DNA of 64,000 nucleotides, taken from contig CM022665.1 of NCBI GenBank assembly GCA_012295275.1, positions 27,094,001-27,158,000 on the forward strand. The letters are read 5' to 3'. The first letter of the stretch is position 1; each line of letters starts with the position of its first letter. The notes beneath the pieces were generated by a model, which was not told the origin of the DNA, searched no databases, and was given only the letters and a program-made list of their open reading frames with translations. The translations under genes were made by a program, and so were the position numbers. The DNA comes from Chrysomallon squamiferum. Taxonomy: Eukaryota > Animalia > Mollusca. Shown here one piece after another: positions 622 to 3,600 of this stretch.

Positions 622-3600
622 GCAAAAAGTATGATGGTCCTGAGGTGGATGTATGGAGTTTAGGTGTTATTTTGTACACTTTAGTCAGTGGATCTCTACC
701 ATTTGATGGCCAAAATTTAAAAGTGAGAACGCAGTTACTTTTCTGCTATTTAAGCTCTAAAAATCTTTTCACTAGATAGATAATTTTAACTAATATTTTT
801 ATGCATTGTTAATGTTAATTTTTTTTTTTTTTTAAATAAGAAGTTTAGACATAAATTTAAAAAATGCAAGTTTAATTTATATTTCTGTTCTGGATTTTTT
901 TTTTTTCCAGGAACTGCGTGAGCGGGTCTTGCGTGGGAAATATAGAATACCATTTTACATGTCAACAGACTGTGAAAACTTACTTAAGAAATTCTTAGTT
1001 TTAAATCCTCTTAAAAGAGCTTCTTTAGAGGTATGTATAGTTTAGTTTGTGTTATGTTAATTCTGTTGTCAGTGTACATTTATATGTTTGAATTTAATTT
1101 GGGAAAAAAAAAAAAAAAAAAAAGTTAAGTAAAAGGATAGGTTTAAATAGTATTAATGATGCACTAACCTATATCCATCAAAAATTACCCACAAAATCTG
1201 TGACAGAATATGTAATGTCCAAATGTTTTGAAAATGTCATTTGTTGCATCTTTATACATAATTGCATACATGAATATACATAAAGTTTGAATTTCCTGAA
1301 AAACCCCAAATACAGTTTAAAATTGTTTTCTTTTAGATGGTCAAGGAAGGATAAAGTTACCACTTTCATATTAGTCATACTTGTTTAATACATATTTGTA
1401 TTTTGAAAACGGACCTCCTACCTTGGTGTGACAGCTGTCAGTGTTTGTTGACAGCCTCACATTTTGGTAGATCTATTTTATAATGAGGATATGATGGAGT
1501 AGTTTAGATTTCATCCACATTTGATTTTAAATTTTTTTAAAACTGCATTTTATAAGAAATTTTAACAGTATCTGTGATAATAGTTTTAAAATATCTTATA
1601 ACAGAAAAATATCTGATAATTTTATTTTTGCCACACACACACACACACACACACACACACACACACACACACACACACACACACAAAAGTATTTGAATGA
1701 CACCCAATGTCTAGTTTTATTTTTATGTGGGGATGTCAGTAAAAAAAAAAAAAAAAAAGAAATAGTTCTTTTTGTTTCTTTCACATAAAAGTTTGTTGTT
1801 TTTCACAAATCTTTGTTGTAAATAAACAGCCTGAAGGCATTCATATGATTATAATAAAGTCAGACACTATTACTGAGAATTTTATCTGGGTCTTTTACTT
1901 TAATCTGAAAGAAAACTGCTAACCTAGGATAGTTTTTTCTGACATGGGTTTGGGATATTGAAATATTCCATGTAAAATTTGAAACAGTGTTGTTACAACT
2001 GTTTCTACCATCTCACGCATTAAGATCATTTGCGGTACAGAAAAAAAAATCAAAAAAAATCAGGGCTTCTCTCTCTATATATATGGACAAATGAAATGTG
2101 TACATTTGTTTTGTGTTTTGTAAAAAACCTTGATTTTCACTCAACAGTTTGGTCAGTAACAGCTGTTTGAAGGTGACTGGGTTTTAATATTGTCCCAAAC
2201 TAAATGTCCATATATACTTTTCTTCCTTTTTTTTGTGCAACAGAACATTATGAAGGACAAGTGGATGAATATAGGTTATGAAGATGATGAACTAAATCCT
2301 TACATAGAACCACCTCCCGACATAAACGACCATGTCAGAATAGGTAATTGTACTGCAAGCCCACCTGTTTAATGGGTAGCTGTAGCTAAGTGTCTGCTGT
2401 ACACTATGTATGTGTTGTGCAATGGAAACAGAAGGATGTTGCATGATGCATGGTGGCTCTCTGCTCTTTACGATCACAATTTGTTTTGATTTATTCACAT
2501 TTTCCAAAATACTGTTAAGAAAAGCATATTCTGTCTTTTTTCGGTCAAAGGATATTCATTGCACCTTTGAGTACCCACTGACAGAAGAAAAGACGGGGCA
2601 TAGAATTCCATTATTTCCATCCTTCTGTTTTCAGAACCAGTTGATATTGTTTTGCTTCATTGAACAATGTTTATTTTTTGATCAGACTATTATGAAAGAC
2701 CGCTGGATCAATTCGTCGTATGAAGATAGAGAATTAAAGCCTTACAAAGAGCCTTCTAGAGATGAACTTGATCCCCAGCGGATAGGTAACAGGACTTCAT
2801 GGCTGCTGGATTATTACAGTAGCTGCCTACTGTCATTTCCTTTGGAAACAAGGATTCCTTTGAAACTAAAATGTTTTAATCTTTTTTTTTATTATTCACC
2901 TGAATCCCTCCCCGTAAGATTTTAGTTGGTTTACTTGTTAAAAATTAAAATAAATACTAAAAGCTTACAGTTTTAAGGTAATTGTCTAAGTAATAGTTAA
3001 ATGCTTTAATTTTTTATTTTAATTTTTAATATTAAGAAAATATTGGATTGTTTGGAAATAAAAACAAAACACTTGTCTTTAAAATAAAATTTTGCATAAT
3101 ATTTTATTTTTAATAAAAATATTTGCATTTGTCATTTAAATAAAATTTTGCACAGTGTAATCTTTTTTTCTCTCTGGTATAAATTTAAAATTTTCAGCTT
3201 TATATAAAAAATAAATAAATAAATAAAATTACAGATTTCATTAGTCTGTTTTTTAGGTTAACATTCTGTGATACGTCATTGATAAAATCTAGTTGTTTTA
3301 CTCGAGTTGTTTAGAATCCTTGTTTTCTAGGTTTGATGTGCTTTTGCATAGCTGTGTGCTTCTGTTTCACTCTGCCAGCCTGCCAGGCTGATCACAGCTC
3401 TACTAATGCCATAGCTTTGCTGTGTCCTAACTTTAGATTCAATCATTTACATGTCATTGTTTACTCTTAGTTTAGAATGTTTTTACATTTTTATATATAA
3501 AATGTCAGAATAGATCAGTTAAAAAATGATGATATAAAAAAGAACTGTTTGTGATGTTAAATAGGATGGGTAGAAAAATACTGATATGAAGAACTGTTTG

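Follow-up and report, generated by a model that had tools for sequence, protein, structure and literature searches.

The window analysed here is a 64,000-nt stretch of Chrysomallon squamiferum DNA (contig CM022665.1, positions 27,094,001 to 27,158,000), and its forward strand carries a gene that is, by its sequence, MARK/PAR-1, a cell-polarity kinase. The gene encodes the combination of kinase, UBA and KA1 domains expected of MARK/PAR-1, and the identity assigned to it in the preliminary description is borne out by protein matches. Its last exon is 100% identical over 112 amino acids to a MARK3-like protein of Gigantopelta aegis (P0004), and the top matches beyond G. aegis are mostly molluscan. 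The G. aegis MARK3-like isoform P0124 matches the MARK1–4 structures with E-values of about 1e-180, and single-residue differences separate the G. aegis protein from exon A, described below, and from the exon that follows it. The KA1 exon has alternative 3′ splice sites and small cassette exons nearby, at 14189 and 14204, at 11672–11708 and at 6806–6845 (boundaries read by eye); these match differences among the G. aegis isoforms.

The region of interest is framed by two constitutive exons on the forward strand: exon U (911..1030), whose translation matches the MARK kinase domain, and a downstream exon (4054..4166) that encodes the UBA domain. Between them lie exon A (2244..2343) and exon B (2686..2785), also on the forward strand, which are paralogues of equal length (100 nt) with AG and GT at their ends. 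Each is found alone between the same neighbours, as expected of tandem mutually exclusive exons. A 129-nt contig from run X9 joins exon U, exon A and the downstream exon, and contigs from RNA runs join 1030 to 2686 (X7) and 2785 to 4054 (X6 and X7). No A–B join occurs among the contig joints listed from four RNA runs, where contigs show the presence of a join and not its absence; similarly, contig depths, and the lack of exon-A joins in X6 and X7, carry no information on isoform levels. Five of seven G. aegis RefSeq proteins are A isoforms and the other two are B isoforms. Exons A and B are an alternatively used pair, as had been proposed, and both contig joins and isoform proteins agree on this.

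What A and B encode runs from the end of the kinase domain through the common-docking motif ExxE, as defined in PMC2604893, to the linker that leads to the UBA domain. Exon A retains the acidic motif EDDE, and the swap to exon B alters it to EDRE. Inclusion of both exons causes a frameshift and an early stop, and skipping both has the same outcome. When exon B was translated onward into its intron and the product used as a protein query, no match emerged; Rfam likewise gave none within positions 1–16000 of the window. The A/B swap is already annotated in RefSeq proteins; a study of the swap was not found in the literature searched. A long internal hairpin is predicted within exon B at 2700–2781 (z −3.8, matched by 0 of 500 shuffles), with an energy of −26.5 against −9 to −18 in six other B exons, compared by energy alone (energies in kcal/mol throughout), and exon B differs at only 1 of 100 positions from its counterpart in a second species, referred to below as organism B.

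Both isoforms are present in the proteins of Gigantopelta, Haliotis, scallops, Mytilus, oysters, clams, a chiton, Pomacea, Lineus and Lingula. The exons themselves were found across molluscs, a brachiopod, a nemertean and annelid-type loci, a label that derives from the 32-codon exon B common to these loci and to Paralvinella P0100. A metagenome pattern scan for the exons yielded 108 stretches (105 loci). Six contigs carry the two exons in tandem (L043, L068, L072, L082/L081, L095/L094 and L100/L101, the last three known only from 644-nt pieces), and L042 and L061 have one exon each on separate contigs. In a tree of 55 peptides over 33 columns, a single B clade with local support of 0.89 unites molluscs, brachiopod, nemertean and most annelid-type loci; the B exon of L043 falls outside it, as does L008. 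The tree is weak evidence for a single exon duplication before molluscs, brachiopods, nemerteans and annelid types split, and the duplication appears ancient. The split of these lophotrochozoan phyla dates to the Cambrian.

At annelid-type loci of the L001 type and the L008/L028 type, a single exon lies between those neighbours; some of these loci have an A-like exon and others a B-like one of 32 codons. Because these related loci hold one exon each, while L043 holds both, the pattern suggests that the exon pair was divided between gene copies. Six database gene models (P0074–P0076, P0102, P0115 and P0193) fuse A and B in one protein; they are probably artefacts of gene modelling and were used only as a sign of A-then-B order.

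The introns that follow the two exons contain four elements on the forward strand, located exactly where the preliminary description had placed them. SA (2423..2438) and D1 (2618..2633) are the 5′ and 3′ arms of a predicted stem in the A–B intron, D1 being pyrimidine-rich and running into an AG. SB (2844..2857), which resembles SA minus 2 nt, and D2 (3314..3327), which is followed by TAG-GT, are the corresponding arms of a stem downstream of exon B. The SA:D1 duplex has 16 bp and an energy of −22.8 kcal/mol, and SB:D2 has 14 bp and −17.9 kcal/mol; these are the strongest and second-strongest ungapped helices with at least 11 bp in 2150–3500, and have loops of about 180 nt and about 455 AU-rich nt, respectively. 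From the start of exon A to the last element, the arrangement spans less than 1.3 kb.

The preliminary description had called for a comparison of the pairing energies with shuffled controls, and this came out in favour of both stems: after block-wise dinucleotide shuffling, a best helix of −22.8 or lower occurred in 1 of 544 shuffles. A best helix of −17.9 or lower occurred in 48 of 544, and a second-best helix at that level in 4 of 544. Natural DNA is richer in strong helices than such shuffles, as 5 of 47 window tiles of 1351 nt, the SA:D1 tile included, have a helix of −22.8 or lower. In folds of 2344–3420, the cognate stems form jointly and the cross pairs SA:D2 and D1:SB contribute 0.0 expected base pairs. 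SA:D1 and SB:D2 coexist with a probability of 0.93–0.98 across folds of different spans, and SA:D1 persists in folds at 10, 20 and 37 °C. The two pairings are likely, on these folding models, to be independent intronic stems that stand side by side. A third helix, 2373–2383 with 2819–2829 (−14.0), was discarded, as it is unpopulated in the folds and is broken by a T>C difference at 2381 in organism B. A small predicted hairpin at 2643..2671 of the forward strand places the candidate exon B branch point, A2659, in its loop; the three listed stem-arm differences in organism B all retain its pairing, as transitions often do by chance.

The likeness between the two stems exceeds chance. Their arm similarity is equalled by 1 of 630 pairs of control helices, and in 0 of 630 pairs do both cross duplexes reach −10.5 or lower; SA and SB do not stand out when the introns are aligned locally and unguided. 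The earlier proposal that exon, selector and dock were duplicated as a unit stands in so far as the stems look paralogous. It is weakened by the apparent age of the exon duplication and by the failure to find a B-side twin in annelid-type loci. As the exon duplication appears to be ancient, the stems cannot simply owe their likeness to a unit duplication of that age; selection on the sequence they share, or a local copying event at a later time, would be needed.

Conservation was read from organism B, represented by one contig from runs X10 and X11 of one sample. The contig aligns in four pieces (904–1038, 2188–2452, 2619–2859 and 3313–3413), and the stretches between them are replaced. The block edges fall 14 nt beyond SA, where the second TGCATG ends, 1 nt within D1, 2 nt beyond SB and 1 nt ahead of D2, so that all four elements lie in or at the edges of blocks kept in organism B. 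There are zero differences across 2406–2452, which holds SA and two TGCATG motifs. Three differences fall in 2619–2647, around D1, and by subtraction there are about four near SB; these are unplaced and could break pairs, and at most one, also unplaced, lies near D2. For comparison, the constitutive flanking pieces carry 9 differences over 135 positions and 15 over 128. This alignment shows, at the level of sequence, constraint on the intron blocks that hold or border the four elements, and covariation of the snail stems is unreadable from it.

Helices that link the ends of the A–B intron were also sought in other MARK loci. Three of the six other two-exon loci (L068, L082/L081 and L095/L094) have such a helix at a level reached by no more than 1 of 200 shuffles, compared with 2 of 61 other MARK introns (de-duplicated from 94) at no more than 1 of 100. 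In the ungapped test of L072, 35 of 200 shuffles were as good, one mismatch splitting its helix; the A–B intron of L043 has no significant intron-end helix, and none was found in the 544 of about 940 intron nt covered for the clam-type L100/L101. Two nested helices are common to L068, L072 and L082/L081. In the first, one column reads A-U, A-A and C-G across the loci and two further one-sided changes keep pairing; the second retains a 7-bp core with extensions that differ and are still paired. The annelid-type A–B intron stem thus has a single two-sided compensatory change, A-U to C-G, and, as these three loci are related, the pattern represents two of four lineages.

GCATG adjoins the helix with the compensatory change in L068, L072 and L082/L081. 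Overall, seven of the nine A-side stretches contain it (three of these stretches being related), as do two of seven on the B side and 5 of 18 single-exon loci, which points weakly to enrichment after exon A. The search for a B-side stem in L072, L081 and L061 turned up none that was significant, and local alignment detected no significant homology of the snail elements with those of annelid-type loci or with clam-type loci. An AG-GTAAG sequence is conserved 180–212 nt before exon B in L068 (about 2297–2305), L072, L050 and L081, just past the outer helix, and CAG-ATGT precedes it in three of these. It is possibly a recursive splice site, a 6-nt microexon or a decoy 5′ splice site, and it is absent from the A–B intron of the window and from L094, L101 and L043.

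Taken with the folding models, these results indicate that the RNA stems are probably real, conserved and functional at an ancient exon pair. The reading we favour, which we hold to have an even chance of being right, is that they bring distant splicing-control sites together without competing. Control of FGFR2 exons IIIb and IIIc is said to work in this manner, with an ISE-2/ISAR stem plus UGCAUG in intron 8 (attributed to Muh in 2002 and Baraniak in 2003). Bridging is preferred over competition because, in the folding models, the cognate stems coexist and the cross pairs do not form a competing state. The features expected of a bridge are found in the window: a predicted long-range stem, SA:D1, in the intron between exclusive exons, and conserved UGCAUG beside it. 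Two tandem TGCATG motifs, putative Rbfox-type sites on the forward strand at 2440–2445 and 2447–2452, are invariant in organism B, whose block ends at 2452, and are only partly open in the SA:D1 fold (unpaired 0.51 and 0.14).

It is proposed that SA:D1 would form first, and that both stems would then coexist. SA:D1 would loop out about 180 nt, leaving the tandem UGCAUG downstream of exon A and near the exon B branch-point region, where an Rbfox-type protein may promote A and repress B. SB:D2 would place the conserved block 3328–3413 close to exon B's 5′ splice site and might favour B when the Rbfox-type protein is absent. Nonsense-mediated decay would, given the frameshifts, remove A+B and skipped mRNAs, and the exon swap changes the common-docking motif of the kinase. 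The likeness of the two stems is left unexplained by such bridging. Steric hindrance is an unlikely cause of exclusivity, since about 105 nt remain between the exon A 5′ splice site and the candidate exon B branch point even with SA:D1 closed.

The likeness to FGFR2 extends to a long-range stem within the intron between exclusive exons, to tandem UGCAUG in that intron and, perhaps, to a downstream exon that is the default. According to PMC2777236 and PMC2880598, UGCAUG in the intron between the FGFR2 exclusive exons represses the downstream exon, and stems that bridge Rbfox sites to exons, with the position-dependent action of Rbfox, are reviewed in PMC7404189. The present locus differs in that the motifs stand at the inner base of the 5′ arm, in having a look-alike second stem after exon B, and in resting on prediction. 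In its action the stem pair would resemble an approximating stem such as that of FGFR2; in the folding models it lacks the competition that defines the docking-site/selector family.

Insect Dscam1, 14-3-3zeta, Mhc and MRP1 resemble the locus in having tandem duplicated exons, related elements after each and a complementary site downstream of the cluster (as described in PMC6071210 and PMC8791459). They differ in that, here, each selector-like element has a better partner of its own, the best pairings coexist and the cross pairs are predicted to be unpopulated. Duplication of stem arms along with exons has been proposed to create competing structures (PMC6071210). Human ATE1 exons 7a/7b likewise form a cluster of two exons whose introns hold several conserved complementary elements, R1–R5, with one of them between the exons; as described in PMC7797038, competing pairs mask two 3′ splice sites and need near-balanced energies. 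No such masking is apparent here, as the six best partners of SA and of SB do not include the pyrimidine tract of either exon. Drosophila srp exon 4 also has two stems, each acting by approximation without sequence specificity, as stated in PMC4691838 and PMC6071210; in srp, inter-intronic stems cross to form a pseudoknot, whereas those of the window are intra-intronic and sequential. An upstream dock across exon A, of the srp type, was not found, the best partners being weak and outside the conserved blocks (SA with 1766, −14.7).

RNA structures at mutually exclusive exons are known mainly from insects and a few vertebrate genes. Searches of the open literature, by titles and the beginnings of abstracts, showed nothing on pairing in MARK/PAR-1 or in molluscs, annelids or lophotrochozoans; a catalogue entry could exist beyond that scope. 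The locus is a compact test case for whether duplicated stems compete or only bridge, in what is apparently a lophotrochozoan-wide isoform swap that changes the charge of the common-docking motif in a core polarity kinase.

It is unlikely, though worth stating, that the twin stems derive from a whole duplicated stem-loop and act as a protein-driven switch, in which a factor at the tandem UGCAUG, or a helicase, would move SA to a site past exon B, which could be D2, through an exchange of strands among the four arms, or D3, around the SB:D2 stem, and loop out exon B. Before such a move, the geometry of the SA:D1 and SB:D2 state leaves exon B exposed. If true, the switch would swap the docking surface of PAR-1, in a cluster whose intron-closing stems have been kept since the lophotrochozoan phyla split.

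An alternative that we consider just as tentative makes SA itself the switch element, moving among a local hairpin, D1 and D3, with SA:D3 nesting around SB:D2, looping out B and selecting A. The local hairpin (2402..2455, forward strand) has SA in its loop and hides both TGCATG motifs; its prediction is weak alone (−17.8 kcal/mol, z −1.9, 20 of 500 shuffles). It dominates before D1 is transcribed (P 0.94), which fits the proposal, and is predicted to yield to SA:D1 once D1 is made. D3 (3359–3368) lies in the conserved forward-strand block after D2 (3328..3413), which also contains ACTAAT, a QKI-type motif, at 3402–3407. It is the second-best partner of SA in 1031–4053 (−16.4 vs −11.7 for D2), and a role in switching would account for the conservation of this block. 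The SA:D3 state costs only 3.4–4.5 kcal/mol above the ground state, retains 14 of 14 SB:D2 pairs and is aided by them, the cost being +7.5 with D2 blocked. Its pairing is, however, poorly kept: position 3366, a T in the window, reads C both in organism B and in run X7, which is of the window's own species (one contig, depth about 5), the C giving an A-C mismatch, and forcing 3366 to be unpaired raises the state to +8.2 with P 0.01. Of the six listed differences at paired positions, read by hand, three break pairs and none is compensatory. Furthermore, with D1 blocked, SA:D3 has a probability of 0.80 at 37 °C, which cooling to 20 °C lowers to 0.19 and cooling to 10 °C to 0.06.

The model of the preliminary description, in which SA and SB are selectors that compete for D2 and D1, and the combination of SA:D2 with D1:SB loops out exon B, is improbable. 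The cross-complementarity on which it was built is present, with a 2-nt bulge, and lies beyond chance (0 of 630): SA and SB each pair with both docks, at −10.5 (SA:D2) and −11.7 kcal/mol (D1:SB) against −17.9 and −22.8 for the cognate stems. The geometry fits clusters with a downstream dock, for example 14-3-3zeta and Mhc (as described in PMC6071210). SA:D2 is probably retained in organism B because SA is invariant there and D2 nearly so, and the persistence of stem resemblance despite an old exon duplication hints at selection. Nevertheless, the cross pairs are unpopulated in the folds, and the competition itself is not supported. Competing docks would have best pairings that exclude one another at comparable stability, whereas the cognate stems are sequential and compatible (P 0.93–0.97). 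The doubly cross-paired ensemble lies at +19.7 kcal/mol, either cross pair alone is 15–17 higher, and blocking both D1 and SB still leaves SA:D2 at 0.01 expected base pairs. SA:D1 can also form when transcription has about 700 nt to go before reaching D2, each cognate pair matches the 2-nt indel within itself, SA pairs equally well or better with other sites, and the search found no B-side twin in annelid-type loci. Competition would require a protein or helicase that drives a four-arm strand exchange.

It is more doubtful still that the stems serve to mask sequence resembling 3′ splice sites, with SA and SB hiding the pyrimidine tracts of D1 and D2. Both tracts, and the AG in which they end (at D2 an AG-GT like that of a recursive site), are evident from direct reading, and AG-GTAAG is conserved upstream of exon B in four other loci; yet a purine-rich arm always implies a pyrimidine-rich partner, and AG-GTAAG is missing from the A–B intron of the window and from three loci. 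No contig joint at 2634 or 3330 is among those listed in the RNA runs, and an in-frame extension from the AG of D1 would, as read by hand, contain a stop in organism B. Finally, it is very improbable that the conserved blocks are protein-binding sites with incidental pairing, exclusivity coming from splicing factors and nonsense-mediated decay alone: equally strong helices in 5 of 47 tiles, the lack of covariation read in snails and the sufficiency of frameshifts to eliminate wrong products would fit, but the four conserved block edges coincide with or abut helix arms, annelid-type loci carry a compensatory change, and intron-end helices are enriched over control MARK introns.

Elsewhere in the window, an 18-bp helix (10092–10109 with 10720–10737, −24.6 kcal/mol) encloses a small MARK exon at about 10230–10296 (LDGQEPEPP...) that is missing from some relatives' proteins, and this helix is possibly a loop-out element. 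In an upstream MARK intron, 105–120 pairs with 162–177 in a 16-bp helix (−23.6) with a 42-nt loop. In the tile 47286–48636 there is a perfect inverted repeat of 87 bp, its arms about 460 nt apart, which is possibly a non-autonomous transposon.
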